The position numbers and the translations under genes were made by a program. 24,000 nucleotides of DNA from contig NZ_VIVQ01000004.1 of NCBI RefSeq assembly GCF_007829035.1, positions 116,214 to 140,213 on the forward strand. The letters run 5' to 3'. Under the pieces are notes generated by a model. That model saw nothing but the letters and a program-made list of their open reading frames with translations. It searched no databases and was not told where the DNA came from. Below are positions 2,101-24,000 of the stretch, in pieces (positions within the stretch are counted from its first letter, which is position 1; every line of letters starts with the position of its first letter). This DNA is from Rudaeicoccus suwonensis (lineage in GTDB: Bacteria > Actinomycetota > Actinomycetes > Actinomycetales > Dermatophilaceae).

Positions 2101-2116
2101 CAGCGCAGCACTTCGG

Positions 2117-6105: not shown

Positions 6106-6132
6106 GTCCCTATTGTCTGCGTCGGCGGTTGC

Positions 6133-7845: not shown

Positions 7846-7852
7846 GTCCCCA

Positions 7853-7876: not shown

Positions 7877-7920
7877 GTCGCATCGGCCACAGCGGTCGAC
7901 GGGCACCGGCAGGACCGTCG

Positions 7921-8460: not shown

Positions 8461-8546
8461 TGCACCGAATGTAGTTGCCATTCCCGAGACGCCCAGGCGG
8501 CGTCCCATTCGTCGGCTACCCGCGTGGTGGCGTCGGCCGACTCGAC

Positions 8547-8710
8547 CCCCGCGAGGTGTCGACATCTGCCGGTTGCCCCAGCGACCACCTCCACGAGATG
8601 TCAACATTCGCCGGTCTCCCCAGCAACCACCTCCACGAGATGTCAACATTCGCCGGTCTCCCCAGCAACCACCTCCACGAGATGTCAGCATCTGCCGGTT
8701 TCTCCAGCAG
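8547..8710. repeat. 42-bp tandem repeat array (about 0.7 + 3 + 0.2 copies), each unit carrying a degenerate palindrome
   Basis: Full units lie at 8576-8617, 8618-8659 (1 mismatch to the first) and 8660-8701 (4 mismatches to the second). A partial unit lies at 8547-8575. The best palindrome is AGGTGTCGACATCT at 8554-8567. CGAGATG recurs at 8594, 8636 and 8678. Confidence 0.9.
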
Positions 8711-8728
8711 TGATCCGACGTATAGCGA

Positions 8729-8875
8729 CATCTCGTCGCATGGCCCAGGTCGTCGCGGGACACACCTGGCTCGCGTACGACGTGGCCACCATCTCGCCCC
8801 ACGGCTCAGGTCGTCGCGGGACACACCTGGCTCGCGCACGGCGTGGGCCACCATCTCGTGGGCCGTCATCTCGTG
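8729..8875. repeat. 61/62-bp tandem repeat (about 2.3 copies), each unit beginning with CATCTCG
   Basis: Units lie at 8729-8789 and 8790-8851, with a partial unit from 8852. They share the core GGTCGTCGCGGGACACACCTGGCTCGCG. CATCTCG occurs at 8729, 8790, 8852 and 8867. The period is not a multiple of 3. Confidence 0.8.
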
Positions 8876-8965: not shown

Positions 8966-8993
8966 TTGTTTGTTACTTGTCCGTTTCTATTGT
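8966..8993 (+). promoter_or_regulatory. Candidate promoter of the fru-PTS operon in an AT-rich tract
   Basis: TTGTTT (8966-8971), a 16-nt spacer, then TATTGT (8988-8993, TAnnnT type). The tract is about 30 nt upstream of the fruR GTG and is flanked by TCCGAT direct repeats at 8960 and 9000. Pattern-based only. Confidence 0.3.
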
Positions 8994-9024
8994 TTTTGAT
9001 CCGATCGCCAGGTACAACTGTCGT

Positions 9025-9825
9025 GTGCCAGATCACACTTCGACCACCAAGGGCTCCGGATCGCTCTATGCGCAGGAGCGCCAGTCGCGCATCCTGCAGA
9101 TCGCCGCAACTGACGGCCGCGTCGAGGTCGCCGGTGCCGCCGAGCACCTCGGCGTCACCCCGGAGACCGTCCGTCGTGATCTCAAAGCGCTGGAGAGCAG
9201 TGGCCGGCTGCACCGGGTGCACGGTGGCGCGATCCCCGTCGAGAAGCTGGATTTCGAGCCCACCCTCGCCATACGTACCCAGGCACAGGCCGACGAGAAG
9301 GCACGCATCGCCGCGGCCGCCCTCCAACTGCTGCCCGAGGAGGGCACGGTCATCGTCGACGGCGGTTCGACCACCGCACTGCTGGCCGAAGGCTTTCCGC
9401 GCGATCGCAAGCTGACTGTCGTCACGGCATCCCTGCCACTGGCATCCGCCCTGCTGCCCCTGAGCAACGTCAGCCTGCATCTGCTCGGCGGATACGTGCG
9501 AGCACGCACCCAGACAGCCGTCGGCGACTGGGCTACCGCCGCCCTCGGCGAGCTGTATGCCGATCTGGCGATCCTGGGCACCAACGGTCTGTCCGTGGAA
9601 CACGGCCTGACGACCCCCGACCAGCGCGAGGCCAGCGTCAAGCGCGCGATCATGACCGCCAGCCGCCGCCGTGTCGTGCTCGTCGACAGCACCAAGATCG
9701 GCGTCGACCACTTCACCCGGTTCGCGACGCTGGAACAGATCGACACCGTCGTCACCGATAGCGCTGCCGCCGCCAAGACCTGCAACGCCATCACCGCGGC
9801 GGGTCCGGAGGTGATCTGCGCGTGA
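9025..9825 (+). CDS. fruR: DeoR family transcriptional regulator (fructose operon repressor type)
   Basis: N-terminal HTH ERQSRILQIAATDGRVEVAGAAEHLGVTPETVRRDLKALE plus a DeoR C-terminal sugar-phosphate-sensor-like domain. GTG at 9025 is preferred over TTG at 8977, which lies in AT-rich, low-GC3 sequence. The stop overlaps the fruK start (GTGA, 9822-9825). Confidence 0.85.
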   Translation: MPDHTSTTKGSGSLYAQERQSRILQIAATDGRVEVAGAAEHLGVTPETVRRDLKALESSGRLHRVHGGAIPVEKLDFEPTLAIRTQAQADEKARIAAAALQLLPEEGTVIVDGGSTTALLAEGFPRDRKLTVVTASLPLASALLPLSNVSLHLLGGYVRARTQTAVGDWATAALGELYADLAILGTNGLSVEHGLTTPDQREASVKRAIMTASRRRVVLVDSTKIGVDHFTRFATLEQIDTVVTDSAAAAKTCNAITAAGPEVICA

Positions 9826-10769
9826 TCATCACCCTGACCCCGAACCCGTCGCTCGACCGCACGCTCAGCGTCGGCGACCTGGTGCGCGGCGAGGTCAACC
9901 GGGCCGTCGCCAGCACGCTCGAACCGGGCGGCAAAGGCGTCAACGTCACCCGTGCCTTGCTGGCCAACGGCTCCGACAGCGTCGCGGTCTTTCCGTGTGG
10001 CGGCAACAACGGCCGCCTGATGGAACTGCTCATCAGCGAGGAGCACGTCGCCACCCGCATCGTGCCGGTCGCCTCCGCGATCCGCGTCAACACCGCCATC
10101 ATCGAGCCCGACGGCACGACCACCAAGGTCAACGAAGCCGGCCCGCACCTGAGCCCCGCAGAGGTCGCGTGCCTGCTCGACACCACCGAAGAACTGATCA
10201 CCGGCGCCGGCTGGCTGGCGCTGTGCGGCGCTCTCCCGCCAGGCCTGCCCGACGACTTCACCACCCAGGTCGTGCGTCGGGCCCGAGCCGCGGGAGCGTC
10301 GGTGGCCATCGACGCTTCGGGCGCCGCACTGCGCGCGGGCGTCGATGCGTGCCCGCAGCTGATCAAGCCCAATCGCACCGAGTTGGCCGAACTTGTGGGC
10401 CGCGACCTCGAAACGGTCGATCAGGTCTGCTCGGCCGCTCGTGATGTCATCCGAGAAGGCGTCACCACCGTGATCGTCAGCCTCGGCAAGGACGGCGCTC
10501 TCGCCGTCGGCGAAAGGTGCGCCATACATGCGCACGCCGTCGCCCCGAAGCCGAAATCGACTGTCGGAGCTGGTGATTCGCTGCTCGCCGGCGTGCTGTC
10601 AGCGCTCGACAGCGGCCACGATCTGGCCGAATCCCTGCGCACGGGCGTGGTCTGGGGCACCGCCGCAGTCCAACTGCCCGGCTCCCGTATGCCGACCCCG
10701 GCTGACCTGGCCGGAGTGCACGCCACGATCACCACCGACCTCGACGGATCCCGTCGGCTCACCGACTGA
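9822..10769 (+). CDS. fruK: 1-phosphofructokinase (PfkB family)
   Basis: MIITLTPNPSLDRT N-terminus, GGKGVNV, and the C-terminal VGAGDSLLAG ribokinase-family motif. It sits between fruR and the PTS fructose genes. Confidence 0.9.
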   Translation: MIITLTPNPSLDRTLSVGDLVRGEVNRAVASTLEPGGKGVNVTRALLANGSDSVAVFPCGGNNGRLMELLISEEHVATRIVPVASAIRVNTAIIEPDGTTTKVNEAGPHLSPAEVACLLDTTEELITGAGWLALCGALPPGLPDDFTTQVVRRARAAGASVAIDASGAALRAGVDACPQLIKPNRTELAELVGRDLETVDQVCSAARDVIREGVTTVIVSLGKDGALAVGERCAIHAHAVAPKPKSTVGAGDSLLAGVLSALDSGHDLAESLRTGVVWGTAAVQLPGSRMPTPADLAGVHATITTDLDGSRRLTD

Positions 10770-10798
10770 AGCAACCGGATTTCACCACCAGAAAAGGA

Positions 10799-11254
10799 AT
10801 GACCATGTCCATCATCACCCGCGACCAGGTGCTGCTCGACCTGCACGCTGCCGACCGGCACGATGCCACCCGGCAGATGGCGCAGACCCTCGCCGACGCC
10901 GGGCGTGTCACCGATCTCGACTCCTTCCTTGCCGACGTGCGCGCCCGCGAGGAGCAGATGGCCACCGGGCTGCCGGGAGGTATCGGCATACCCCACGCCC
11001 GCAGCAGCGCCGTCTCCGAACCGTCGCTCGTCTTCGCGCGCAGCGCCGGCGGCATCGACTGGGGCGCCGAAGACGGCCCCGCCACTCTCGTCTTCCTGAT
11101 CGCCGCGCCCGAAGGCGGCGGTGACGAGCACCTGAAGATCCTCGCCGCGCTCGCGCGCAAGCTGATGCGTGCGGACTTTCGCACGTCACTGGCCGAGGCC
11201 GCAGACGCCGATGCAGTCGTCGAGATCGTGACCACGCAGGTGGTGGCGGCATGA
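10799..11254 (+). CDS. PTS fructose/mannitol-family EIIA component (stand-alone)
   Basis: GLPGGIGIPHARS contains the phosphorylatable His of PTS EIIA type 2. AAAGG SD upstream, with an alternative ATG at 10805. The stop overlaps the next start (ATGA, 11251-11254). Confidence 0.85.
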   Translation: MTMSIITRDQVLLDLHAADRHDATRQMAQTLADAGRVTDLDSFLADVRAREEQMATGLPGGIGIPHARSSAVSEPSLVFARSAGGIDWGAEDGPATLVFLIAAPEGGGDEHLKILAALARKLMRADFRTSLAEAADADAVVEIVTTQVVAA

Positions 11255-12795
11255 AACTCGTCGGAGTCACCTCATGCCCCACGGGCATCGCGCACACCTA
11301 CATGGCTGCCGAAGCACTCGAGCAGGCAGCCAAGGATGCCGGCCACGAGATGCAGGTCGAGACCCAGGGCTCTGCGGGGTCCACCCCGCTGTCCCCGGAG
11401 GTCATTGCCGCGGCCGACGCCGTCGTCTTCGCGCACGACCTCGAGGTCAAGGACCGTGGCCGGTTCGCCGGCAAGCCGACGGTCGACGTCGGCGTCAAGA
11501 AGGCCATCTCCGATGCAGCCGGTCTGATCGAGCAGGCCGTCGGCCTGGCCGAACGCGGTGAACTCGGTGCCGCATCGGCCGCGGCTCCCACCGGCGGTGG
11601 TCTGGTGACCAAGGTCGAGGAGGGCGCCTCCGTCGGCACCCGGATCCGGCAGTGGCTGATGACCGGTGTGAGCTACATGATCCCGTTCGTCGCTGCGGGC
11701 GGCATCCTGATCGCGTTGTCCTTCATGCTCGCGCAGGTCGCCGGCGGCAAGCGCGGCGCCATCGACGTGACCAACTACAGCCTCACGACACCGACCGGCC
11801 TGTCCGCGAGCTACAACCTGGTCACACACTTCAACGCCGGATCCGGGATGCACTGGGCCGGCCTGCTGTTCGTGATCGGTGCTGCATCGTTCAGCTTCCT
11901 GGTGCCGATCCTGTCCGGCTTCATCGCCTTCGGGATCGCCGACCGTCCAGGCATCACGCCCGGTATCGTCGGCGGCTTCATCGCCGCAACGATGGGCACC
12001 GGATTCCTCGGCGGTATCGCGACCGGATTCATCGGCGGCTTCCTTGCCTTGTGGATCAGCCGCTGGAAGGTGCCCAAGGGCGTGCGCGGCGTGATGCCCG
12101 TCGTCGTCATACCGCTGCTGTCGACGGTCATCACCGGCGCCGCGATGATCATCGTGCTCGGCCGTCCGCTGAAGTGGCTCACCGACGCGCTCACCCACGG
12201 CCTGGACGACCTGTCCAAGGGCAGCGGGATCGTGCTCCTGGGAATGGTCCTCGGCGCGATGATGGCCTTCGATCTCGGTGGCCCGGTCAACAAGGTGGCG
12301 TACACCTTCGCGACCACCGGTCTGGCCGCCGTCGGCACCGCCACCGACGCCCCTCAACTGCGGGTGATGGCTGCGGTGATGGCCGCCGGCATGGTTCCCC
12401 CGCTCGGTATGGCGCTGGCCACCGTCGTGCGCAAGCAGTTGTTCACCGAACCAGAGCGTGAGAACGGCCGAGCGGCCTGGTTGCTCGGGGCCTCCTTCAT
12501 CACCGAGGGTGCCATCCCGTTCGCCGCAGCGGACCCATGGCGTGTCATCGTCTCCTCGATGGTCGGATCGTGCGCCACCGGCGGTCTGGTGATGGTCTTC
12601 AACTGCACGCTGCGCGCACCCCACGGCGGCATCTGGGTGGCTCCGCTGATCGGCAACGCACTGCTGTTCGTCCTGGCTGTCGTGATCGGGGCCGTCGTCA
12701 CCGCGTTCGTGGTAATCCTGTTGAAGGCGCAGCGCGCCAAGGCGATCACCGCCGGCGCGCAGACTGTGGCCGAACCGGCCGCAGCGACAGTCTGA
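11251..12795 (+). CDS. fruA: PTS fructose-specific EIIBC component
   Basis: The N-terminus MKLVGVTSCPTGIAHTYMAAEALE is an EIIB domain with its active Cys. It is followed by a long polytopic hydrophobic EIIC domain (514 aa total). Confidence 0.9.
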   Translation: MKLVGVTSCPTGIAHTYMAAEALEQAAKDAGHEMQVETQGSAGSTPLSPEVIAAADAVVFAHDLEVKDRGRFAGKPTVDVGVKKAISDAAGLIEQAVGLAERGELGAASAAAPTGGGLVTKVEEGASVGTRIRQWLMTGVSYMIPFVAAGGILIALSFMLAQVAGGKRGAIDVTNYSLTTPTGLSASYNLVTHFNAGSGMHWAGLLFVIGAASFSFLVPILSGFIAFGIADRPGITPGIVGGFIAATMGTGFLGGIATGFIGGFLALWISRWKVPKGVRGVMPVVVIPLLSTVITGAAMIIVLGRPLKWLTDALTHGLDDLSKGSGIVLLGMVLGAMMAFDLGGPVNKVAYTFATTGLAAVGTATDAPQLRVMAAVMAAGMVPPLGMALATVVRKQLFTEPERENGRAAWLLGASFITEGAIPFAAADPWRVIVSSMVGSCATGGLVMVFNCTLRAPHGGIWVAPLIGNALLFVLAVVIGAVVTAFVVILLKAQRAKAITAGAQTVAEPAAATV

Positions 12796-12831
12796 AGCCC
12801 GAACTGCCCTGAGAAGAAAGTGAATCCGAAC

Positions 12832-13110
12832 ATGACTGCTGTCACGCGCACCGTTGAGATCGCGTCCGCCGTCGGCTTGCACGCGCGCCCCGCGGCGTTG
12901 TTCGTGCAGGCTGCCGGCGGCACCGGCCTCGACGTCACGATCGGTCGGCCCGGCGACGAGGCCGTCGACGCGACGAGCATCCTGGCCGTCATGGCCCTGG
13001 GTGCCCGGCATGGTGAGACCGTCGAACTCAGCGCGACCGGCGACGGCGCCGAGGGTGCTCTCGACGACCTGGTCACGTTGCTGTCGACCGATCTCGACGC
13101 CAAGGAGTGA
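12832..13110 (+). CDS. ptsH: Phosphocarrier protein HPr
   Basis: MTAVTRTVEIASAVGLHARPAALFV carries the active-site His motif GLHARPA, and the size is typical of HPr. The track ORF starts at GTG 12820; ATG 12832 gives the more typical N-terminus. Confidence 0.9.
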   Translation: MTAVTRTVEIASAVGLHARPAALFVQAAGGTGLDVTIGRPGDEAVDATSILAVMALGARHGETVELSATGDGAEGALDDLVTLLSTDLDAKE

Positions 13111-13117
13111 CTCGTCG

Positions 13118-14794
13118 ATGAGTGCACATCTGCAGGGGGTCGCCGTCAGCCCCGGGTCCGCGATCGCTCCGGTGGTGCTGGTGGGATCCGCCCCCGCCAT
13201 ACCGATGGACGAACCGCGCACCACTGACGTGGCGGCGACCCAGGAACGTGTTGCGCAGGCCTTCGACTCGGTGGCCGAAAGCCTCGAACGCCGGGCAGAG
13301 TCGGCGACCGACACCGCGCGCGAGATCCTGCAGATGACGGCACTCATGGCCCGCGACAAGACGCTGCGCAAGGCGGTCGACGAGCGGATCGCCGCCGGCT
13401 CCGGCCCACTGACCGCGGTCAGTGCCGGAGTCGGGCAGATCTGCGACTCGTTCCTGGCCCTCGGCGACTACTTCGCCGAGCGCGCCACCGACGTGCGGGA
13501 TGTCGGCAATCGGGTCGTGGCGCGGCTGAGCGGCAGCGCGGATCCCGGCATCCCGCTGCTGGAATCGCAGTGCGTGCTGGTCGCTGAGGACCTCGCGCCC
13601 GCCGAGACCGCGACCCTCGACCCGGCGCTCGTGCTGGGCATCGTCACCGAGGCGGGCGGGCGCAACGGTCACACGGCGATCCTCGCAGCACAGCTCGGGA
13701 TTCCGGCGGTCGTGCAGGTCGCCGGAGCCACCGAGCTGGCCGAAGGCACCCTCGTCGCCGTCGACGGCGACACCGGTCAGGTCACCGTCGATCCGGACGG
13801 CGACCTGCGAGATGCCTTGCAGCACAAGGTGACTGCGCGCAACAACGCGATCGGTCGACACCACGGCGCCGGCCGCACCAAGGACGGTCACCCGGTCGCA
13901 CTGCTGGCCAACATCGGCACCGCGAAGGATGCCGAGGCCGCCGCTACCCAGGACGTCGAGGGCGTCGGACTGTTCCGCACCGAGGTGCTCTTCCTCGGCC
14001 AGCAGAGTGCGCCAACCGTCGAGGAGCAGACGGCGATCTACAGTCGTGTCTTCGCGGCCTTCGGCAGCAGGCGCGTCGTGGTACGCACGCTCGACGCCGG
14101 CGCCGACAAGCCGCTGTCGTTCGCCGATCTCGGCGCCGAGGACAATCCGGCGCTCGGCGTCCGCGGACTGCGGATGAGCCAGGCCTGTCCCGACCTGCTC
14201 GACAACCAGTTGGCGGCCCTCGCCGCGGCAGCGAAGGACACCGATGCCGCAGTCAAGGTGATGGCGCCGATGGTGGCCACCGTCGACGAAGCGCGCTGGT
14301 TCGCGCAGCGCGTGCACGAGCACGGACTGCCCGAGTCCGGCGTCATGATCGAGGTGCCGGCGGCCGCGTTGCGCGCCGAAACCGTGCTGGCACAGGTCGA
14401 GTTCGGCTCCTTGGGCACCAACGACCTGGCGCAGTACACCATGGCCGCCGACCGCACCCACAGTGCGTTCTCCGACCTGCTGGACCCGTGGCAGCCGGCC
14501 GTGCTCGATGTCATCGCCGCGGCGTCGGCCGGAGCATCCTCCGCCGGGCGGCCACTCGGCGTCTGCGGCGAGTCCGCCGGTGACCCGTTGATGGCCTGCG
14601 TCCTGGCCGGGCTCGGCGTCACCAGCCTGTCGATGGCCCCGGCCAAACTCGGCCTGGTCCGTTTCGCGCTCGCCACGCACTCCCTCGACACCTGCGCCCA
14701 GATGGCCGACGCGGCACGGTCCGCGACGTCACCGGCTGAGGCGCTCGAAGCCGCTGCCGCGCTGGCCGACGCGGGTCTGCGGGACCTGCTGTGA
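13118..14794 (+). CDS. ptsI: PTS Enzyme I (phosphoenolpyruvate-protein phosphotransferase)
   Basis: The ATG at 13118 is preceded by AAGGAG (13102-13107). MSAHLQGVAVSPGSAIAP N-terminus, phospho-His motif GGRNGHTAILAAQLGIPAV, and a PEP-utilising C-terminal domain (GTNDLAQYT). Confidence 0.9.
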   Translation: MSAHLQGVAVSPGSAIAPVVLVGSAPAIPMDEPRTTDVAATQERVAQAFDSVAESLERRAESATDTAREILQMTALMARDKTLRKAVDERIAAGSGPLTAVSAGVGQICDSFLALGDYFAERATDVRDVGNRVVARLSGSADPGIPLLESQCVLVAEDLAPAETATLDPALVLGIVTEAGGRNGHTAILAAQLGIPAVVQVAGATELAEGTLVAVDGDTGQVTVDPDGDLRDALQHKVTARNNAIGRHHGAGRTKDGHPVALLANIGTAKDAEAAATQDVEGVGLFRTEVLFLGQQSAPTVEEQTAIYSRVFAAFGSRRVVVRTLDAGADKPLSFADLGAEDNPALGVRGLRMSQACPDLLDNQLAALAAAAKDTDAAVKVMAPMVATVDEARWFAQRVHEHGLPESGVMIEVPAAALRAETVLAQVEFGSLGTNDLAQYTMAADRTHSAFSDLLDPWQPAVLDVIAAASAGASSAGRPLGVCGESAGDPLMACVLAGLGVTSLSMAPAKLGLVRFALATHSLDTCAQMADAARSATSPAEALEAAAALADAGLRDLL

Positions 14795-15659: not shown

Positions 15660-16187
15660 TCACCGGGCGGTGGCGCGCAGCATTCGGATCTCGTCGCACT
15701 CCAACTCCTCGTCGCGCTTGGTCGCTCCGTCGACGACGAATCCGAGTTTGCGATAGAACGCCTGGGCGCGGGTGTTCTCCCGCACGACCCAGAGGTATGC
15801 CGCAGCTCCTCCCAGCGTCTGCTCGACGAGTTGCTGCGCGACTCCTGTGCCGTGGAACTGCGCCAGGACGTTGAGCGCCATCAACTCCTGCTCGACCGGC
15901 CTTTCGTCGTCACGGCCCCCGCCCACCGAGCAGAAGCCGGCGAAACGGCCGGTCGGGGCGTGCACTGCCAGCCGCGCACGCCGCACGGTGCCATCCGGGG
16001 CGACGGCGTCGGCTCCGGCTGCGATGCGCGCCTCCCAGCCGGCTATGCGCGGCTGCAGTTGCATGGCATCGAGGTAGTCCTGGCTGCACATGCCGGCATA
16101 CGTGTCGCGCCATACCTGCAGATGCAGCGCGGCCACCTCGGCCGCGTCACCCACGCGGAACGGCCGGATCACGAACTGCGCAGTCAC
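15660..16187 (-). CDS. GNAT family N-acetyltransferase
   Basis: GTG start in a GTGA overlap (16184-16187) with the upstream gene. The acetyl-CoA-binding region LNVLAQFHGTGVAQQLVEQ and the C-terminal AFYRKLGF motif are typical of GNAT proteins. Confidence 0.8.
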   Translation of the reverse strand: MTAQFVIRPFRVGDAAEVAALHLQVWRDTYAGMCSQDYLDAMQLQPRIAGWEARIAAGADAVAPDGTVRRARLAVHAPTGRFAGFCSVGGGRDDERPVEQELMALNVLAQFHGTGVAQQLVEQTLGGAAAYLWVVRENTRAQAFYRKLGFVVDGATKRDEELECDEIRMLRATAR

Positions 16188-16574: not shown

Positions 16575-17972
16575 TCAGCTCCAGATGTTCAGCGGTGTCA
16601 GGCCCCACCGCTCACACTCGAGCAGCACCAGTCTTGCGAGACTCCCGTTGTCACCGATGAGATCCGGCTGCAGGCTCTCGACCGTGAGCGTCATCCGGTC
16701 ACCGAACTCCTGCAACCAGGTCGTCACGCCCCCTCCTGCCGACTGCATCAGCTCCTGCGTCACATTGCGGTGCACGCCGCGGCACATCATCGAACGCGCC
16801 GGAGGGCCGCCGAGCCCGGTCAGCGGTGGCTTCATCCGGCCGACGTTGGAGCAGGTCACCAGTGCCGCCGGCATCCGTTCGGCCACCCGCTTGAGCAACC
16901 AGTGCGGCAGCACCCGCAGCAGTGGCTCGAGTTGCTGGCCCACGTCGGCGCGCTGCGGGTCGGCCGCGCGCGTGAACTCGGCCTTCGATGCTGCGCGCAC
17001 CGGGCCGAGATCGGCATACATCTTGTCGGTGCAGTGGACCGGAACCGAAGCACTGCCAAGCACATTCGAGCGCCAGTCGTCCGGTCCGCGACGTGTCGTA
17101 GGCAGCACTACCGAGACCGTCGAACCACTGGGGACACGGCCGCTCGCGACCATCAACCCCGCGCTGAATGCCATCAGCAGACTGTTGGCGGTGCCCCCGC
17201 GCGTGGCAGCCGCTTGCTGCCAGTCGGCGACCGACAGGTCGACGACACAGAACGGTGGAATGTAGTCAGAGCCCGGAATCCCTCGCATCGGCAACGTCGG
17301 CTTGCTTCGCAGCGGCGTCTGCACCGCCTCGTGCGCAGGAGCCTCCGGTGCGGCAATCCGTGCCTTGCGCTGCGCACGTGCCGTGCGCACCGCTCGACCG
17401 ATCGCCCGGCCGGCTGCGGCCAACTGGCGACGGGCGTCGCCCAGGTCATCGCGGGTACGCACCGCGTGCGCACCGGCCGTGTCGTCAGGCAGACAGGGCA
17501 CCGCTGCGCCGGTGACCGCGGCCTCGATCGACCGGACGATGAGCGAGCCGTCGCCGATGCAGTGCCGGGTGGTGAACGACACCAGTTGGCTCCCGTCCGA
17601 CACCGGCGCGGCAGCCAACCGCCACCCTGGTCCGCGCACCGGGTCCAGGTGATCGCGCAGCCGATCGTCGAACCACCGCATCACGTAACGGGTTTGGACC
17701 ACGTCGGTGTCGACTCGCAGGTGATCGACGACGGGCGCCGGCACCCACCGCGACCGTGCCTGCGGCACCGTCGCCGGGGCGACCAGTCGGCTCATCGGCC
17801 CGGCCAGCATCCGGTCGTGCATCAACCCGAGCTGTGCGGCTGACAGTGGCTCGTCCAGCCACCAGGTGTGCTGTGAGGTCAACGGCACGCCCAACACCTG
17901 CTCGCCTAGGAAGTATGCGTCGTCGCCGAAAGTCATCCGGTTGTCGATCACGTCTGACACGGGTGTCCTCAC
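16575..17972 (-). CDS. WS/DGAT-like (condensation/CAT superfamily) O-acyltransferase, paralogue 2
   Basis: Active-site-like RHCIGDG (xHxxxDG) preceded by LDPVRGPGWRL. C-terminal CSNVGRMKPPLTGLGG resembles the WS/DGAT SNVPGPxxPLYxxGA motif. High GC3 on this strand. GTG 17972 overlaps the upstream stop (GTGA); alternative starts are GTG 17996 and ATG 17936. Confidence 0.7.
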   Translation of the reverse strand: MRTPVSDVIDNRMTFGDDAYFLGEQVLGVPLTSQHTWWLDEPLSAAQLGLMHDRMLAGPMSRLVAPATVPQARSRWVPAPVVDHLRVDTDVVQTRYVMRWFDDRLRDHLDPVRGPGWRLAAAPVSDGSQLVSFTTRHCIGDGSLIVRSIEAAVTGAAVPCLPDDTAGAHAVRTRDDLGDARRQLAAAGRAIGRAVRTARAQRKARIAAPEAPAHEAVQTPLRSKPTLPMRGIPGSDYIPPFCVVDLSVADWQQAAATRGGTANSLLMAFSAGLMVASGRVPSGSTVSVVLPTTRRGPDDWRSNVLGSASVPVHCTDKMYADLGPVRAASKAEFTRAADPQRADVGQQLEPLLRVLPHWLLKRVAERMPAALVTCSNVGRMKPPLTGLGGPPARSMMCRGVHRNVTQELMQSAGGGVTTWLQEFGDRMTLTVESLQPDLIGDNGSLARLVLLECERWGLTPLNIWS

Positions 17973-19339
17973 CAGAATCGGGGTTGCAGCGACCACTTGG
18001 CCGCCTCGTCGATGACCGCCTGCTGGAGAGAGTCCGTGTCAGGCAGTCGGTCCGGATCCATGCTCAACACGCTGAGTGTCGCGGCTCCGTCCGACGTCGT
18101 CAGCCAGGCGGTGATGCCCCCACGGGCAGTCCGCAGCTGCTGCACATCTGCACCTCGCACAAGCATCCGGGCTGTCGTTCGTGCGGCGACATCGCCGCCC
18201 AATGTGGATACCTCAGAGGGCAATTCGCCGACGTTCGAGCAGGTGCACACGGATACCGGTTGCGAGAGAGCGATGCGCCGCAGCAGTGCGTGCGGCAGCA
18301 GCCGGATGGTCGGGGTCAGCATGCGCAGTATGTCGGTGTGGTCGCGCTCGGGGTCGGTCGCGCGTGTCAGGGCATCTCGCACCGCGACCCGGATCGGCTG
18401 CAGATCGGTCGGACGGTCGGCCGCGACAGGCACAGCCACCGTGGCACCGATCGTGGCGATGGCCCGCCGATCGCCGGGTGCGCGCTCTGCCACCGGCATC
18501 GACACCGGGATCGTCGTGCCCGCTGTGATGCGCCCCACCGACTCGAGCAGCCCCACAGACAACGCAATCAGCAGCGAATTAGAGCTTCCACCGAAGGTTT
18601 TCGCGGCGTTCACCCACCGTTCTTCGTCGAACTCGGCGACGACCCACGCCCCGGCAACTGCACGCGCTGTGGGTGCGATCTGCGCCGCAGGCTCGGGCTG
18701 CGGCATACGTTCGCCCGAGCTCCGCGCATCAGGCGAGCGGCGACTGCGCCATACGGTCCGGATCGCAGCGACCAACCCGCGAACGGCCGACACGATCTGC
18801 AGCACTGCGTCGCGGGCATCCGCCCACTTCGACACACGTGCAGCGGTAGGCGAATCATCGGGCAGACGACCCGTGGCCGCTCCGGTCACCGCCGTGATCA
18901 CCGCCGCGTAGAAGCCGCTCCCGTCGACTACCGCGTGCGACGCAACCAGGCTCACCACGTGCCCGCCGTCACGCAGCGGAGCAGCGGAAATGCGCCACGC
19001 ACAACCGGATTCGAAATCGAGCGGGGCGTCGATGCAGCGTTGCGCCCACTGCAAGATGTCAGAGCCGTCGATCGGCTCACCGAAGGACACCAGCGGCCGC
19101 GGCGGCTCGGCGGCCATCCACCGGTCCCGCGCGAACGGGACCTTCGCCCGCGACAACCGTCGGGTCAACGGACCCTCGCCGAGTGCGCGCGCCACTGTCT
19201 CGAGCCGCGCCCGGTCCAGCGGCGAGTCGAAGCGCCACAGCATCTGATTGTCGATCGGCATCCCGAGTGCCCGATCGGCGAGGACGAAGGTCTCCTCGGC
19301 GGCGGTGAGCCTGTTCAGATCCGGCGGCATGGGCGACAT
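17969..19339 (-). CDS. WS/DGAT-like (condensation/CAT superfamily) O-acyltransferase, paralogue 1
   Basis: SHAVVDG (xHxxxDG) preceded by LDFESGCAWRI. C-terminal CSNVGELPSEVSTLGG. It aligns by eye with the downstream paralogue from LTAAEETFVLADRALGMP onward. The ATG at 19339 (MSPMPPDLNRL) is preferred over the track start at 19429. Confidence 0.7.
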   Translation of the reverse strand: MSPMPPDLNRLTAAEETFVLADRALGMPIDNQMLWRFDSPLDRARLETVARALGEGPLTRRLSRAKVPFARDRWMAAEPPRPLVSFGEPIDGSDILQWAQRCIDAPLDFESGCAWRISAAPLRDGGHVVSLVASHAVVDGSGFYAAVITAVTGAATGRLPDDSPTAARVSKWADARDAVLQIVSAVRGLVAAIRTVWRSRRSPDARSSGERMPQPEPAAQIAPTARAVAGAWVVAEFDEERWVNAAKTFGGSSNSLLIALSVGLLESVGRITAGTTIPVSMPVAERAPGDRRAIATIGATVAVPVAADRPTDLQPIRVAVRDALTRATDPERDHTDILRMLTPTIRLLPHALLRRIALSQPVSVCTCSNVGELPSEVSTLGGDVAARTTARMLVRGADVQQLRTARGGITAWLTTSDGAATLSVLSMDPDRLPDTDSLQQAVIDEAAKWSLQPRFW

Positions 19340-19395
19340 GATGCCGCAATCGGCTGCTCTGCTGCGCACTGGCGAGTGTCCAAATATGCTGCCAC

Positions 19396-19428
19396 TGCTC
19401 ATGCTTCGACCGATAGAGCGCATGAGCA
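19396..19428. promoter_or_regulatory. Inverted repeat TGCTCATGC-N15-GCATGAGCA in the divergent acyltransferase/GT2 promoter region
   Basis: 9-bp perfect arms read directly, lying between the divergent starts at 19339 (-) and 19485 (+). An AT-richer CAAATATG segment at 19381-19388 is adjacent. Confidence 0.3.
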
Positions 19429-19484
19429 TGCCGCGATCGTGTGGCCTGTCTCACACCGCCGGCGCCACGTGCGAAGCCTTTAGG

Positions 19485-20336
19485 ATGACCGCCATGTCTC
19501 AGCCGACTGTCTCGGTCGTGATTCCGACTCTCGATGAGCAGGACTCCATCCGCAGGTGCCTCGACCGCCTGCTTCCGCAAGCCGATACCGACACCGACAT
19601 CGTCATCGTCGACAACGGCTCAACCGATGACACCGTCGCCATCGTCGAGTCGTATGCCGCAAACGACTCGCGGGTTCGGCTGATCCACGAGAGTGCTCGC
19701 GGTGTGGCACAGGCGCGCACCGCCGGATTCGAAGCCGCCACAGGCGAATTGCTCGCTCGTATCGACGCCGACACGCTCGTTCCGCCGGGTTGGCTCAGGG
19801 GTTACCGCGCGTTCTTCACCGCCGACCACGATCACGCGTGGGCCTGCGCGATCGGTCGGGGCACGCCCTACGGCGTGCCTCTGTCGAGATTCCGCCCGGA
19901 TGCACCGGTGTCGTGGGGCACGGTCAAACCCTGCCGCGTGACCTTCGGAGCGAACATGATGCTGCGCCGTTCGGCCTGGGATCAGGTCAAAGCGGATCTC
20001 CTGACACGTCAAGGCATCTACGAAGATGTCGACCTCGGTCTGTGTCTGCGCGCTGCGGGTCTGCAGACCGCATTGCTGACAGGTATGACGGTCGGCGTCT
20101 CGCCACGGCGGTGGTTTGACAATCCGATCGACTCGTGGCGCTACCTCAGTGGTTGCCCGCGCACGTTCTACGCACATGGTCAGCCGGTCCTGGCCTCCGC
20201 GATCTACGCGGCATTGGTACCGGTCAACGCGATTCACACCCTGCGTTGGATCGTGCTGAGCGCGTATGACGAGAAGGCACAACGCTTTTCGTACCGCCAA
20301 CTGCGCACGCGCCGGGTTCCTCGCGTTCTGCCCTGA
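19485..20336 (+). CDS. Family 2 glycosyltransferase (GT-A fold)
   Basis: TVSVVIPTLDEQDSIRRCLDRL...IVIVDNGSTDDT...RIDADT (DxD) is the canonical GT2 N-terminal domain. ATG at 19485, or ATG at 19494, which has AGGA 8 nt upstream. Confidence 0.85.
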   Translation: MTAMSQPTVSVVIPTLDEQDSIRRCLDRLLPQADTDTDIVIVDNGSTDDTVAIVESYAANDSRVRLIHESARGVAQARTAGFEAATGELLARIDADTLVPPGWLRGYRAFFTADHDHAWACAIGRGTPYGVPLSRFRPDAPVSWGTVKPCRVTFGANMMLRRSAWDQVKADLLTRQGIYEDVDLGLCLRAAGLQTALLTGMTVGVSPRRWFDNPIDSWRYLSGCPRTFYAHGQPVLASAIYAALVPVNAIHTLRWIVLSAYDEKAQRFSYRQLRTRRVPRVLP

Positions 20337-20395
20337 GACTGGCTACGCCGAGCAACTCTGTCGGACGCGGCCGTTGTACGCCGATGCACGAGAGG

Positions 20396-21217
20396 TCATC
20401 CCTTGCGAATGAACGCCCGCACGGTGACCGGCGCCATGACAGCCATGATGACCACCACACCGAGCGTCGACCACACGATGTCGATGCCGGCATGACCGTG
20501 ATTCGCGAGCTCTCGCGTCGCCGTGACCAGATGCGACACCGGGTTGATCTCGGCGAGCCACTTGATCCACCCGGGCATATTCGTCGTAGGCACAAGGGCA
20601 TTCGAGATGAACGTCATCGGCATGAGCACGAACATCGAGGCGCCCTGCACCGCTGCCGGGCTGCTCATACGCACTCCGAGGTAGGCGAAGACCCAACTGA
20701 GCGCGAACGAGGTGAACACCACCAGGGCGCAGCCGACGAGAAGTCCGGGCCAACTGTGCGGGCGATAGCCCATCGCCAGCCCGACCGACACCGCCATCAC
20801 GGTCGCGACCACATACCGCACGATGTCTGCGGTGAGCGCACCGATCAGCGGCGCGACGCGTGCGATCGGCAACGACCTGAAGCGATCGAAGACGCCTTTG
20901 TCGATGTCCTCGCACAACTGCACTCCTGTGCCGACGGCCGCAGTCACTGCGATCTGCACAAGCACGCCCGGAATCAGTTGGGGCAGATAGCTGCTCACAC
21001 TTCCGGCGATCGCGCCGCCGAAGATCCCGGCGAACATGGCGGTTGACACCACCGGCAGGGCGATGACGTCGAAGAGCCGGGCCGGGTTGTGCCGGATCTT
21101 CAGCAGACCCCGTCCGGCGAGAGTCATCGAAGCACCGAACGTGGCCCGAACTCCCGGATGCGCACCCGTCGTCGCCACCGCGCGTCGACTGCGACGCGTT
21201 TGGACAACCGTGGTCAT
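20396..21217 (-). CDS. ABC-2 type transporter permease (DrrB-like)
   Basis: 273 aa with about six hydrophobic segments. The start overlaps the ATPase stop (ATGA, 21214-21217). This is the typical ABC-2 exporter pairing. Confidence 0.85.
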   Translation of the reverse strand: MTTVVQTRRSRRAVATTGAHPGVRATFGASMTLAGRGLLKIRHNPARLFDVIALPVVSTAMFAGIFGGAIAGSVSSYLPQLIPGVLVQIAVTAAVGTGVQLCEDIDKGVFDRFRSLPIARVAPLIGALTADIVRYVVATVMAVSVGLAMGYRPHSWPGLLVGCALVVFTSFALSWVFAYLGVRMSSPAAVQGASMFVLMPMTFISNALVPTTNMPGWIKWLAEINPVSHLVTATRELANHGHAGIDIVWSTLGVVVIMAVMAPVTVRAFIRKG

Positions 21218-22239
21218 GCGCCGACCTCCTGCTCAATGACGGCCGCGCCACTGTCATCGGTGTCGGAGCTCGATCCGCCGGTGAGACTCAGGAAGACCTC
21301 ATCCAGCGTGGGTTTGTGCACTCCCACCTCCTCGATGTGAACTCCCCTGTCTTGCAACAGGATCAGCGCCTCTGTAACCAACGCGGTGTCTTCGACGGGC
21401 ACGGCGACCTCTCGGTTGTCCTGGGTTTGCGGCTCGTGACCGGTCAGCTGGTGCAGCACCTGGCGCACGACAGGCATGTCGTCGTGGTCCGTAGGGACCA
21501 CACGCAGCGTTGCCGGCGCGAGTGAACTCTTCAACTCGTCGGCCGTGCCCTGCGCCACGATGCGGCCACGGTCGATGACCACGATGTTGTCGGCCAACTG
21601 GTCGGCCTCTTCGAGGTACTGCGTGGTCAGCACGAGGGTCGATCCGGCCGCAACCAGCCGTCGGGCGGTGTCCCACATCTGTTGCCGGGTGCGCGGATCA
21701 AGTCCGGTGGTCGGCTCGTCGAGGAAGATGAGGGGCGGCTCGGCGATCAGGCTGGCGGCGAGGTCGAGACGACGGCGCATGCCTCCCGAGAACGCCCTGA
21801 CCGGCCGGTCCGCCGCCTCGCCCAGAGCGAACTCGTCGAGCAGTTCCACGCCACGTCGCCGGGCCGCCGCGCGCGAGTGCCCCTGCAGCCGACCGAAGAT
21901 CATCAGATTCTCCCGGGCCGTCAATTCCTCGTCGACAGAGGCATATTGGCCGGTCAGTCCGATCAACGAACGCACCCGGTGAGACTGCTGCACCACGTCG
22001 TGCCCGAACACCCGCGCGGTGCCGCCGGAAGGTTTCAGCAAGGTGGCCAAAACACGAACGGTGGTGGTCTTTCCGGCACCGTTCGGTCCGAGCAGGCCCA
22101 GCACCGAACCCGCCGGGACGTCGAGGTCGATGCCGTCGACAGCCACGAAATCACCGAAACGACAGGTGAGTTGTCGCACCTCCACGGCCTTGTCGCCCAG
22201 GGACTGCAGAGGTCTCGGGTTGTCCGTCATGACCGACAT
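21214..22239 (-). CDS. ABC transporter ATP-binding protein (DrrA/daunorubicin-resistance-type)
   Basis: Walker A GPNGAGKTT, signature FSGGMRRRL, Walker B LIFLDEPTTGLD. The C-terminal domain ends in LDEVFLSLTG plus an acidic tail. The start is ambiguous: ATG 22239, ATG 22230 or GTG 22263. Confidence 0.9.
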   Translation of the reverse strand: MSVMTDNPRPLQSLGDKAVEVRQLTCRFGDFVAVDGIDLDVPAGSVLGLLGPNGAGKTTTVRVLATLLKPSGGTARVFGHDVVQQSHRVRSLIGLTGQYASVDEELTARENLMIFGRLQGHSRAAARRRGVELLDEFALGEAADRPVRAFSGGMRRRLDLAASLIAEPPLIFLDEPTTGLDPRTRQQMWDTARRLVAAGSTLVLTTQYLEEADQLADNIVVIDRGRIVAQGTADELKSSLAPATLRVVPTDHDDMPVVRQVLHQLTGHEPQTQDNREVAVPVEDTALVTEALILLQDRGVHIEEVGVHKPTLDEVFLSLTGGSSSDTDDSGAAVIEQEVGA

Positions 22240-22296
22240 GGTGCCGTATGACGAAGCCAACACCCGAAGTGATTCTTGTCATGGAACTCTTGGCGC

Positions 22297-23604
22297 ATGC
22301 AGATTCTCATGCCGTTCCTCGGCAGTCGCGGCGACGTTTCACCCGGTGTGGCTCTCGCGATCGAGCTTCAGCGACGCGATCACGACGTGGTGCTCGGGGT
22401 CCCGGCGAACCTCCTGCAACTGGCCCGTGACTCCGGCGTCGACGCGGTCGAGATGGGGCCGGACTCGCGTGAGTTGCTTCGCTCGGATCTCGTGCAGCGA
22501 CGCATCAAGTCGGCCAATCCGGTCCGAAAATGGCGTGCCCTTTCAGAACTCGGCTGTTTCGGGTGGGGCGAACTCGCACCTCAACTGGCGAGGTACGCCG
22601 CCACGACGGACGTGATCGTCTCGTGTCTGCTCGGTGAGGAGGTGGCCAGGGCGATCGCCGAGAGGTATGCCGTCGCCCAGGTCGCCCTGCACTACTATCC
22701 GATCCGGCGGTCCGAGTCGACGTCGGTGGTTCCTCCCGCGCCTGTCGCGCCACGTTTGCTGCAGCATGTCGCCGATGCTGCGCTGGAACGCTCCTGGCGG
22801 TTGATGACCCGCAGCGGCGAGGATGCCGTCCGGTCGTCGCTGCACCTGCCACCGTCACGAACGCCCCTTCCGGCGCGAATGATCGGATCCGGGTCGCTGG
22901 AGATCCAGGCTGTCGACCCGCTGCTGTTTCCCGGACTCGCCGAGGAGTGGGGCAGCCGGCGACCGCTGGTGGGCTTCCTCGATCTCGACGACGCGACACA
23001 TGAACGCGTCGATCGTCCAACCGCAACGCACGACACCGGCCTCGGTAGCTGGTTGAGTGACGGAAAGCCCTGCGTCTATTGGGGTTTCGGCAGTATGCCG
23101 GTAAAGGACCCTCGCGCTACAGTCGCTCTGATCCGTGAAGTCTCGACGCACCTCGGCGTCAGGGCGCTCGTCGCAGCCGGGTGGTCAGATCTGGCTGATG
23201 CAACCGAGGCCGATGTGCGGATCGTGGATGCCGTCGACCACCGCACCGTGTTCCCGCGGTGCGCTGCTGCTGTCCACCACGGCGGTGCTGGCACGACAGC
23301 CGCAACGCTGCGGGCCGGGATCCCGTCGTTTGTGGCGTGGTTCAGCGCCGACCAACCGCTGTGGGGACGCCGCCTCGCCGCCTGCGGCGTGGGCGCATCG
23401 GCGCCTTTCCGCACGCTCACCGCAGCGAAAGCGATCGAAATCCTGCGACCACTGCTCCAGCCCGCCAGCCGCGCTCGGGCAGCAGAGGTCGCCGAATCGC
23501 TGATACCGGCCGAGCGTGCCGTCGCGGCGACGGCCGACCTGGTGGAACTAGCGGGAGCCCGGCACTCGTCTACATCGCAAGGAGCGATATTCGCCACACC
23601 CTGA
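22297..23604 (+). CDS. Family 1 glycosyltransferase (MGT / UDP-glycosyltransferase type)
   Basis: N-terminus MQILMPFLGSRGDVSPGVALAIELQRRDHDV and C-terminal nucleotide-sugar motif HHGGAGTTAATLRAGIPSFVAWFSADQPLWG. ATG 22297 is preferred over TTG 22276. Confidence 0.85.
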   Translation: MQILMPFLGSRGDVSPGVALAIELQRRDHDVVLGVPANLLQLARDSGVDAVEMGPDSRELLRSDLVQRRIKSANPVRKWRALSELGCFGWGELAPQLARYAATTDVIVSCLLGEEVARAIAERYAVAQVALHYYPIRRSESTSVVPPAPVAPRLLQHVADAALERSWRLMTRSGEDAVRSSLHLPPSRTPLPARMIGSGSLEIQAVDPLLFPGLAEEWGSRRPLVGFLDLDDATHERVDRPTATHDTGLGSWLSDGKPCVYWGFGSMPVKDPRATVALIREVSTHLGVRALVAAGWSDLADATEADVRIVDAVDHRTVFPRCAAAVHHGGAGTTAATLRAGIPSFVAWFSADQPLWGRRLAACGVGASAPFRTLTAAKAIEILRPLLQPASRARAAEVAESLIPAERAVAATADLVELAGARHSSTSQGAIFATP

Positions 23605-23611
23605 AGTGCAC

Positions 23612-23640
23612 TTGACAGTCGTACTGTCCAGTAACATTTT
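23612..23640 (+). promoter_or_regulatory. AT-richer segment with TTGACA, inverted repeat GACAGT-cgt-ACTGTC and TAACAT
   Basis: TTGACA at 23612-23617, the inverted repeat at 23614-23628, and TAACAT at 23632-23637. The hexamer spacing is only 14 nt, so this is not a canonical sigma-70 arrangement. It lies about 65 nt upstream of the next gene. Confidence 0.25.
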
Positions 23641-23703
23641 CCACGCGCTCGAAATCGACACGCCTTGGCCGCAGTTGACCATCCCCCTGGAGGGCCGACG
23701 CTC

Positions 23704-24000
23704 GTGGAATACACCGAACTCGCCGACTATTCGGTCTTCGCCGGTGACGTGACCCTGTGGTCCGCTTCAGCCGACACCGCGCTCGCCGCAGTCGACCAGC
23801 GTCCCGTCTCGCCGCAGCACGAGACCCACGTCACCGCTCGCAACGACGGCGATCCGGACTGGATCGGCACGGTCTTCGAGATCCGACTGCCCTTCGACGC
23901 AGATGTCCTGCGGGCGACGCTCGAGGCCTGGCACAGCCGGCACGAGTCCTTCCGCACAACTGTCCGGATCACTCCTAACGGCCTGCAACGACTGACCTTT
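23704..24000 (+). CDS. Hypothetical protein, N-terminal fragment; possibly a PapA-like/condensation-domain acyltransferase (3' end outside the window)
   Basis: GTG at 23704 with GGAGGG 9 nt upstream. The frame is open to the window end with high GC3. VEYTELADYS...RPVSPQHETHV...ATLEAWHSRHESFRTTV resembles, from memory, the N-terminal region of mycobacterial PapA proteins (..AHLRRHDTYRSWF..). This has not been verified. Confidence 0.5.
   Translation, partial: MEYTELADYSVFAGDVTLWSASADTALAAVDQRPVSPQHETHVTARNDGDPDWIGTVFEIRLPFDADVLRATLEAWHSRHESFRTTVRITPNGLQRLTF

Follow-up and report, generated by a model that had tools for sequence, protein, structure and literature searches.

Gene content of the locus

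We analyzed a 24,000-nucleotide stretch of the genome of Rudaeicoccus suwonensis (family Dermacoccaceae; contig NZ_VIVQ01000004.1, positions 116,214 to 140,213), hereafter called the window. An earlier note, made from the sequence alone, had described the region from position 16575 to the end of the window as a candidate locus for the biosynthesis and export of an acylated glycolipid. The window, which has a GC content of about 66%, contains the left half of a gene cassette that is conserved across several actinobacterial orders. All seven genes of the earlier description were present at about the places given, and their family calls held. Gene starts were refined using the N termini of homologs and public gene calls from short Logan contigs overlapping the window, and the GC content by codon position was also used. 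The features of the locus are as follows.

16575-17960, minus strand: gene A, putative acyltransferase of a family related to wax ester synthase/diacylglycerol acyltransferase (WS/DGAT); 461 amino acids (aa) from a GTG start at 17960
17972 and 17996, minus strand: alternative GTG starts of gene A
17547-17564, minus strand: HCIGDG, predicted catalytic His/Asp motif of A
17969-19330, minus strand: gene B, paralog of A; encodes 453 aa, with 100% identity to a Rudaeicoccus suwonensis protein of that length in NCBI
18920-18937, minus strand: HAVVDG, predicted catalytic motif of B
19331-19493: 163-bp spacer of the divergent genes B and GT2, presumably the promoter region of B-A and of GT2
19494-20336, plus strand: GT2-family glycosyltransferase, 280 aa; start agrees with a public gene call
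20396-21217, minus strand: ABC-2 (DrrB-type) permease, 273 aa
21214-22239, minus strand: DrrA-type ABC ATPase, 341 aa
22240-22296: divergent spacer of 57 bp between DrrA and GT1
22297-23604, plus strand: GT1 (GT-B) glycosyltransferase of the natural-product/lipid-aglycone type, 435 aa
23704-24000, plus strand: truncated open reading frame (ORF) of PapA-like orthogroup c1; first 99 codons, running off the window end

The stop codon of B lies 8 nt from the start of A, and a GTGA overlap results if an alternative start of A is used. The start at 17960 was picked by aligning the N termini of homologs (MSDV.DNR), and the GC content of A at third codon positions (GC3) was 0.80. As the earlier note had stated, GT2 is divergent from the A/B pair and GT1 is divergent from the exporter, the latter spacer measuring 57 bp where about 60 bp had been given. 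No match to a sigma-70-type consensus was found in the 163-bp spacer, and a promoter/terminator scan gave no signal above that of shuffled sequences. GT2 and the permease gene converge with a gap of 59 bp, and GT1 is followed by the truncated ORF in the same direction at a distance of 99 bp.

Family and fold of A and B

A and B shared 34% identity over 460 residues (E = 4e-76) and thus are paralogs. The two genes had been described as tandem WS/DGAT-like genes with xHxxxDG motifs. The tandem arrangement and the motifs were found, and a remote homology was supported at the profile and fold levels, but the proteins are not in the curated WS/DGAT family. In the hidden Markov model (HMM) searches, GT2, GT1, DrrA, and the permease scored above curated cut-offs, whereas A and B matched neither the Pfam WS/DGAT model nor the Condensation model. 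Single-sequence searches of PDB sequences with A and B returned nothing meaningful.

The relationship became visible with a family profile. In a 45-member alignment, whose members were just 25 to 53% identical to B, the nearest solved relative was the Marinobacter WS/DGAT (PDB 6chj; E = 1.9e-8 over profile positions 10 to 363, or 354 positions), and the condensation (C) domains of nonribosomal peptide synthetases (NRPSs) came next at 2e-7. The profile paired the xHxxxDG motif with the HHxxxDG motif of 6chj (HHSLVDG), GGTxNS with GTTVND, PVxxR with PVSLR, and SNxG with SNVPG. A and B carry RHCIGDG and SHAVVDG, respectively, so that the first His of the WS/DGAT motif is missing and the second is aligned. 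A smaller profile of 17 sequences gave a marginal match to 8s6l (E = 0.03), and WS/DGAT was visible only with the 45-sequence profile. The entry 8s6l is the AzeD dehydratase, of which the chain bears a PapA5-type molecule name. The Pfam model WS_DGAT_cat was touched weakly by 2 of the 45 family members, with a best E value of 2.3e-5. Gene A itself matched the A/B family profile at 3.9e-193 and was 51 to 55% identical to its homologs in Flexivirga. In a profile-profile comparison (hhalign), the A/B family was aligned with the PapA-like proteins of the same cassettes over 305 columns across the motif, with a probability of 82% and an E value of 1e-5. From these profile comparisons, the WS/DGAT resemblance of A and B is judged to be a remote relationship and not membership of the curated family; the two proteins form a family of their own within the superfamily.

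The predicted structure pointed in the same direction. An AlphaFold model of B, built on 17 homologs, had a pLDDT of 86 and a pTM of 0.87, and a Foldseek search with this model returned 251 PDB matches at E <= 0.001. The best 50 of the 251 were almost all condensation-superfamily domains, with TM scores of about 0.45 to 0.63; matches to NRPS C domains, terminal C domains of polyketide synthases (PKSs), 8s6l, and the WS/DGAT 6chj had E values of 1e-15 to 1e-19. On the basis of this model, A and B are predicted to be members of the condensation/WS-DGAT acyltransferase superfamily with the two-lobed condensation-domain fold and the His motif at the interface of the lobes. The motif of B follows a modeled strand (residues 123 to 130) and opens a helix (136 to 148), a placement that we take to agree with its position in condensation domains. 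An HxxxDG motif by itself is weak evidence, since about 0.05 chance occurrences are estimated per 460-aa protein. The motif nevertheless carries weight here, because the His and Asp (H132 and D136 of B) were invariant in the 45 divergent relatives and the Gly was nearly so; the SNxG motif was also nearly invariant.

An exhaustive HMMER scan of 1.84 billion cluster representatives (clusters at 50% identity) found 688 clusters at E <= 1e-3 and 237 at E <= 1e-30. A word-indexed search had returned only 9 and 8 relatives of the two proteins, suggesting an extremely rare family; the 688 clusters ruled this out. Used alone, such a search would badly mislead on the rarity of a fast-diverging family such as this one. 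The named members were all actinobacterial "hypothetical proteins" (Saccharopolyspora, Rhodococcus, Aeromicrobium, Williamsia, and Mycobacterium), and some members were labeled "diacylglycerol O-acyltransferase" in IMG and UniRef. The A/B family is undescribed, having neither a Pfam nor an NCBIfam model and no description in the literature searched.

Several members of the family are found as the last, C-terminal domain of a type I PKS, immediately following an acyl carrier protein (ACP). With the A/B-family domain written as X, the architectures included FAAL-ACP-KS-AT-ACP-X and AT-DH-ER-KR-ACP-X. This position after a carrier protein argues that the domain accepts acyl groups in thioester linkage and off-loads them onto an acceptor. 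The PKS-fused members were seen in proteins P0114, P0128, P0109, and P0138 and in locus L011 (37-6063). The FAAL-ACP-KS-AT-ACP-X protein parallels Pks13, with the thioesterase replaced by the A/B-family domain, and genes for cutinase, esterase, and true WS/DGAT are found close to the Mycobacterium example.

A Logan assembly of run SRR9002436 (locus L008, 96-1493) contained gene A with a different C terminus (...GSLADWCCSSVSGGA), apparently caused by a 1-nt indel. Since the copy in the window keeps the C-terminal W..L.P...W of the family, it looks intact, and the other copy is probably an assembly error or a variant.

PapA-like genes and conservation of the cassette

The truncated ORF at the window end encodes an N terminus of 99 residues beginning with VEYTELADYSVFAGDVTLW... 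(VEYTELADY... start). This fragment, from which the catalytic motif would fall beyond the window, matched Pfam Condensation (PF00668) only at E = 0.13, and no homolog was found in the word-indexed search. In four Flexivirga genomes, however, the gene after GT1 was 56 to 61% identical to the ORF at its N terminus, over about 100 aa; for the Williamsia counterpart, the identity was 40%. The N-terminal signature of orthogroup c1 also occurred in the c1 genes of Aeromicrobium, Saccharopolyspora, and Rhodococcus. The full-length Flexivirga ortholog, to which the fragment was 59 to 61% identical, matched Pfam Condensation and PapA2 (3.2e-15) and keeps the motif DHSVMD. Thus, the earlier assignment of a PapA/condensation-type N terminus stands because of orthology and not because of the HMM score of the fragment itself. 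With the profile and fold results for A and B, all of the acyltransferase-like genes were placed in the condensation superfamily, and none fell into unrelated families.

In Flexivirga, the closest available relatives, the locus continues past the point that corresponds to position 24000, as had been expected of the window: three PapA-like genes and LmeA follow. The gene order there is LmeA, three PapA-like genes, and GT1, then divergently DrrA, DrrB, a B-like gene, and an A-like gene. The window proteins were 52 to 78% identical to those of Flexivirga, a genus of the same family as the source, and GT1 and a PapA-like gene are adjacent and read in the same direction there also. In Williamsia, the cassette contains three PapA-like genes, DrrAB, GT2, GT1, and four A/B paralogs. 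Rhodococcus has three PapA-like genes, an A/B gene, GT1, and another A/B gene, with a fourth PapA-like gene nearby. The Aeromicrobium cassette contains three PapA-like genes, an A/B gene, DrrAB, and another A/B gene, with no glycosyltransferase, and that of Saccharopolyspora consists only of three PapA-like genes and two A/B genes. The co-conservation looked for in relatives was thus seen in Flexivirga and covered much of the set in the other four genera. Constant in all five genera, counted as representing four other actinobacterial orders in addition to the window's own family Dermacoccaceae (Flexivirga), were the three PapA-like orthogroups, always next to two or more A/B-family genes. What does not vary is therefore a set of five condensation-superfamily acyltransferases, and GT1, GT2, DrrAB, and LmeA are variable accessories.

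An all-against-all BLAST comparison split the PapA-like genes into three orthogroups, each of which is kept across orders and has the DHxxxD motif. In a search of solved structures, one Flexivirga PapA-like gene matched PapA2, the trehalose-2-sulfate acyltransferase of Mycobacterium tuberculosis, over its full length at 5.5e-41, and the other two matched it at 3.2e-15 and 2.1e-8. PapA5, for which we assume the structure to be PDB 1q9j, was not among the matches.

Free-standing condensation-type proteins could also form amide bonds in the manner of NRPS C domains, and the product might then be a lipo-amino acid or an acylated amino sugar. Many NRPS C domains ranked as high as WS/DGAT in the Foldseek search with B, and for one PapA-like orthogroup the Txo1 C domain scored slightly better than PapA2. 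In sequence, however, A/B and two PapA-like orthogroups have O-acyltransferases as their best relatives, and no adenylation domain, carrier protein, or thioesterase was found in any cassette. Amide formation is the least probable of the alternatives we considered.

Exporter and glycosyltransferases

The exporter had been described as a translationally coupled pair of the DrrA/DrrB type, and this was borne out for the coupling and for the DrrA-type ATPase. The ATPase passed the TIGR01188 (drrA) model with 357.7 bits (cut-off, 312.45), and the Pfam domain DrrA1-3_C was just below its cut-off; no domain was detected beyond ABC_tran and the DrrA-type C-terminal domain. The stop codon of the ATPase gene overlaps the start codon of the permease gene (ATGA at 21214 to 21217, with GGAGG upstream), which indicates translational coupling. 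The permease matched Pfam ABC2_membrane at 7.5e-25 (88.1 bits; cut-off, 26.9). Its best NCBIfam match was the DrrB family, but the subfamily cut-offs were missed (TIGR00025, 80.7 against 146.9; TIGR01247, 62.7 against 223). It was 73 to 78% identical to its Flexivirga counterparts and 53% identical to that of Williamsia. A second permease, DrrC, was not found; like the related cassettes, the window has just one gene for an ABC-2 permease. The permease has several hydrophobic segments and is the only protein of the locus with transmembrane segments, so that all of the chemistry is predicted to be cytosolic.

GT2 matched Pfam Glycos_transf_2 (PF00535) at 8.6e-31 (107.6 bits; cut-off, 23.3) and reached no equivalog-level or otherwise specific NCBIfam model. 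It was 39% identical to the GT2 of the Williamsia cassette; none is present in the Flexivirga cassette. GT1 was above the cut-off for both Glyco_transf_28 in its N-terminal part and EryCIII-like_C in its C-terminal part. The nearest solved relatives of GT1 were the vancomycin glycosyltransferases GtfA, GtfB, and GtfD and sterol 3-beta-glucosyltransferase, GtfB and GtfD aligning over the full length, and GT1 is likened on this ground to enzymes that glycosylate small lipophilic acceptors. Its orthologs in the cassettes of Flexivirga, Williamsia, and Rhodococcus were 59 to 62%, 40%, and 44% identical, respectively.

The presence of these accessory genes allows two other explanations. In the first, GT1, GT2, and the ABC-2 transporter would belong to an ABC-transporter-dependent pathway for a cell wall glycopolymer, which the acyltransferases would O-acylate. 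Pairs of an ABC-2 permease and an ATPase serve as exporters of O-antigens, teichoic acids, and galactan as well, the NCBIfam model of galactan Wzm was matched weakly (E = 0.0066), and GT2 enzymes are typical of polysaccharide synthesis. Moreover, LmeA (Pfam PF11209), a cell envelope protein linked to lipomannan elongation in mycobacteria, adjoins the cassette in Flexivirga. This explanation is nevertheless quite improbable. None of the cassettes contains a priming phosphoglycosyltransferase, a polymerase, or a polyprenyl-linked step, two lineages have the cassette core without any glycosyltransferase, and the ATPase passed the DrrA model with no additional domain. The condensation-superfamily enzymes of the cassette are, in addition, soluble and cytosolic, and known members of the superfamily use small acceptors.

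In the second explanation, GT1 and DrrAB would form a unit for antibiotic self-protection or resistance by glycosylation and efflux, beside unrelated acyltransferase genes. The 57-bp divergent spacer suggests coregulation of GT1 and the pump, the name DrrAB refers to daunorubicin resistance, and the best NCBIfam matches of GT1 were the rifamycin-inactivating Rgt and macrolide glycosyltransferases. The score of GT1 against the Rgt model, however, was 91.7 bits where the cut-off is 800, and the cut-offs of MGT and Mgt were likewise missed. GT1 and DrrAB also remain inside the acyltransferase cassette across orders, and GT1 runs in the same direction as the PapA-like gene 99 bp on, a neighborhood that recurs in Flexivirga. 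A resistance unit is even less probable than a wall glycopolymer pathway.

Proposed product and pathway

We propose that the cassette directs the cytosolic, PKS-independent synthesis of a polyacylated trehalose-type (oligo)saccharide lipid that is exported by the ABC-2 pump, a reading to which we assign a probability of roughly 60%. The analysis establishes the gene content, the family and fold assignments, the conserved catalytic residues, and the co-conservation of the genes, and from these we infer the trehalose-type acceptor, the donor, one position per enzyme, the order of the steps, and the direction and cargo of transport. Five soluble O-acyltransferases (A, B, and the three PapA-like proteins), each with an HxxxD His/Asp site, would transfer acyl groups from a thioester donor to sugar hydroxyls. 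Five conserved and catalytically intact enzymes suggest that each would serve one position. Thioester donors are proposed because A/B-family members follow ACP in type I PKSs, and acyl-CoA from primary metabolism would be the most likely donor. The acceptor would most likely be trehalose or an acyl-trehalose intermediate; this trehalose-type reading rests on the PapA2 matches taken together with the lipid-type GT1 and the ABC-2 exporter. In the source genome, the GT1 and GT2 enzymes may add one or two sugars from nucleoside diphosphate (NDP)-sugars. Assembly would take place in the cytosol, and the finished amphiphile would then cross the membrane through the DrrA/DrrB-type exporter. Reports exist of products that would fit: trehalose tetraesters in Micrococcus and Arthrobacter, and polyesters of the succinoyl and oligosaccharide types in Rhodococcus, Nocardia, and Tsukamurella (PMC4365757).

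Several observations weigh against this proposal. A and B gave no Pfam match even at E up to 10 and no NCBIfam match at E up to 1, and the best NCBIfam matches of GT1, although far below the cut-offs, were antibiotic-modifying enzymes (rifamycin-inactivating Rgt and macrolide Mgt). No genes for the synthesis of trehalose or NDP-sugars or for fatty acid activation were found in the window or in the cassettes of relatives, so that the acceptor and the donor are guesses. PapA-family enzymes are not all sugar specific, PapA5 being one that acylates phthiocerol. GT1, GT2, and DrrAB are each absent from the cassette in at least one lineage, and glycosylation and export are thus not obligatory. The full-length PapA-like triad was seen only in relatives, the window holding just the start of the first gene, and no lipid data on Rudaeicoccus or Flexivirga were found in the literature searched. 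The earlier claim of a locus that makes, decorates, and exports an acylated sugar lipid is supported by the family placement and co-conservation of the genes; the glycosylation and export genes occur only in some lineages, and the sugar lipid is a predicted product.

The variable glycosyltransferases bear on another explanation, in which the acceptor is not a sugar: the five enzymes would instead acylate, for instance, a polyol, a long-chain alcohol or diol, a hydroxy-fatty acid, or a small molecule of secondary metabolism. The product would then be a lipid like a wax ester or triacylglycerol, or one of the estolide type, and glycosylation would be a lineage-specific decoration. Among solved proteins, the one closest to A/B in sequence is a wax ester synthase/DGAT, and the database label "diacylglycerol O-acyltransferase" of some family members agrees with it; the Aeromicrobium and Saccharopolyspora cassettes lack any glycosyltransferase, and the acceptor of PapA5 is a diol, not a sugar. 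On the other hand, no other solved enzyme comes nearly as close to the PapA-like genes as the trehalose-acylating PapA2, and three families keep an orthologous GT1 of the lipid/natural-product type within the cassette. Three lineages (Flexivirga, Williamsia, and Aeromicrobium) have an ABC-2 exporter embedded there, whereas storage lipids are not exported, and true Pfam WS/DGAT genes occur separately in actinobacterial genomes (e.g., L011). We consider a non-sugar ester lipid unlikely, although it is the most probable of the alternatives to the trehalose-type lipid.

If the trehalose-type reading is extended to the whole group, the pentad of three PapA-like orthogroups and at least two A/B-family genes might be the long-missing PKS-independent machinery for the trehalose tetra- and penta-esters and the succinoyl and oligosaccharide lipid biosurfactants of Actinomycetota. 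Each enzyme would then acylate one hydroxyl, and the presence of GT1 and GT2 would set whether trehalose esters or tri- and tetra-saccharide lipids are made. The same domain would serve as the chain-releasing, acceptor-esterifying end domain of type I PKSs, as the Pks13 thioesterase does for trehalose mycolates. This extension is tentative, and we regard it as a possibility that may well not hold in full.

Comparison with known systems

In M. tuberculosis, sulfolipid-1 is made by PapA1/PapA2, Pks2, FadD23, and MmpL8, and the diacyltrehalose/polyacyltrehalose (DAT/PAT) locus includes PapA3, Pks3/4, FadD21, MmpL10, and Chp2. The present cassette resembles these acyltrehalose loci in that free-standing PapA-type acyltransferases are clustered with an exporter and one orthogroup matched PapA2 over its full length. 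The predicted cytosolic assembly followed by export is also shared, since DAT synthesis is cytosolic and precedes export (PMC4183827). PAT is a penta-acylated trehalose (PMC2676004), and its five acyl groups may be set against the five acyltransferases of the cassette. In contrast, no PKS, FadD, or MmpL gene was found in the 24-kb window, in agreement with the earlier note, or within 10 kb of the cassette in six related genomes. With no linked Mas-like PKS, FadD, or MmpL and no recognizable Chp, the cassette is not a member of the acyltrehalose-locus type. It has an ABC-2 pump where the M. tuberculosis loci have an RND-type MmpL, and five dedicated acyltransferases where M. tuberculosis uses one or two PapA enzymes and a periplasmic transesterase. 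Two of the five, A and B, belong to a family absent from the M. tuberculosis loci, and the hosts of the cassette include actinobacteria outside the mycolate order Mycobacteriales.

The composition also resembles the genes for phthiocerol dimycocerosates and phenolic glycolipids (PDIM/PGL), where a DrrA-type ATPase and an ABC-2 permease lie beside GT1, GT2, and a PapA-type acyltransferase. The counterparts in that region are presumably DrrABC, the GT1 enzymes Rv2962c/Rv2958c, and the GT2 enzyme Rv2957. The cassette differs in having one permease (no DrrC) and no phthiocerol or mycocerosate PKS genes, and its PapA-like genes resemble PapA2 and not PapA5.

A and B share with WS/DGAT (Marinobacter Ma2, PDB 6chj; PF03007 and PF06974) the two-lobed fold like that of chloramphenicol acetyltransferase, predicted in their case, a length of about 450 aa, solubility, and aligned His-x3-Asp-Gly, PVSxR, and SNxG motifs. 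Unlike WS/DGAT, they miss the Pfam models and have a single His in the motif (xHxxxDG), and some members of their family are fused to PKS carrier proteins. They also lie in a glycolipid-type cassette with an exporter, whereas WS/DGAT genes are scattered storage-lipid genes.

For Rhodococcus sp. I2R, a cluster of papA genes has been proposed, on the basis of BLAST similarity to TlsA (about 30%) only, to supply the acyltransferases for succinoyl glycolipids, as sugar acyltransferases in a PKS-independent route to trehalose lipids (PMC8396431). That genome has three tandem papA-like genes, a gap of about 1.5 kb, and a fourth, which is the same layout as in the cassette-bearing Rhodococcus locus L012; the A/B-family genes and the intervening GT1 were not remarked on in the paper (PMC8396431). 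No characterized cassette of such composition was found in the literature searched, only annotation-level mentions of Rhodococcus papA genes. The concept is a familiar one, but that literature describes neither the five-enzyme, PKS-independent architecture nor the A/B family.

Well-known biosurfactants include the trehalose polyesters and related oligosaccharide lipids made by Rhodococcus, Nocardia, Tsukamurella, Micrococcus, and Arthrobacter, of which the biosynthetic genes are essentially unassigned beyond the acyltransferase TlsA in the literature searched. The compact cassette, with five acyltransferases and a range that takes in Dermacoccaceae, Rhodococcus, and Saccharopolyspora, offers a concrete candidate for this chemistry. 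PapA-type acyltransferases, which are usually seen as a speciality of PKS-tied mycobacterial virulence lipids, would also form an older, PKS-independent module outside the mycolate bacteria. In addition, the A/B family is of interest for the off-loading of natural products because its members also occur as terminal PKS domains.

Left border and neighboring genes

The left border of the cassette was placed at about 16575 because the upstream genes (Thiamine_BP-like, GNAT, DUF2127, and fructose phosphotransferase system [PTS]) never accompany it in relatives. The GNAT gene (15660-16187) and the Thiamine_BP-like gene (PF01910; 16184-16540) were considered as members of the locus and rejected, being absent beside the cassette in all relatives. 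Both lie directly downstream of A on the same strand, and cotranscription with A is possible. A gene for a DUF2127 protein is also located upstream of the locus.

In Williamsia (L007, 11377-17800) and Rhodococcus (L012, 11991-15509), the cassette adjoins genes for Maf, an AccE-like protein, an acyl-CoA carboxylase carboxyltransferase, and BirA; in the latter, rhodanese and SufE genes are also adjacent. We take these surroundings to resemble the Rv3279c-Rv3284 region of M. tuberculosis. If this resemblance holds, the cassette would have one set place on the chromosome in Mycobacteriales, and M. tuberculosis would lack it at that place.

Other genes of the window lie farther from the cassette. 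A 412-aa ORF (2117-3355, minus strand) had a coding-type GC3 of 0.84 and no Pfam match; an overlapping ORF (1444-2481, plus strand) likewise had no match. Two adjacent ORFs at 3389-5148 (minus strand) matched the Pfam "Putative esterase" family (PF00756), which we understand to include the Ag85 trehalose mycolyltransferases. About 12 kb separates them from the acyltransferase locus, the host being outside the mycolate order, and a connection with lipid remodeling is conceivable. As called, the two ORFs overlap by about 260 nt, so that their starts need trimming. A gene resembling the methylmalonyl-CoA mutase large subunit (6133-7845, minus strand; E = 1e-205) lies between genes for a tetratricopeptide repeat (TPR) protein and a MarR-type regulator (5158-8802), and no small subunit or MeaB was recognized near it. 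Methylmalonyl-CoA mutase interconverts succinyl-CoA and methylmalonyl-CoA, both conceivable acyl donors; the gene is not conserved beside the cassette. The fructose-type PTS operon (8977-14794, plus strand), which was rejected as unrelated because it is unlinked to the cassette in relatives, is complete and encodes a DeoR regulator, a PfkB 1-phosphofructokinase-like kinase, EIIA, EIIB-EIIC, HPr, and enzyme I.

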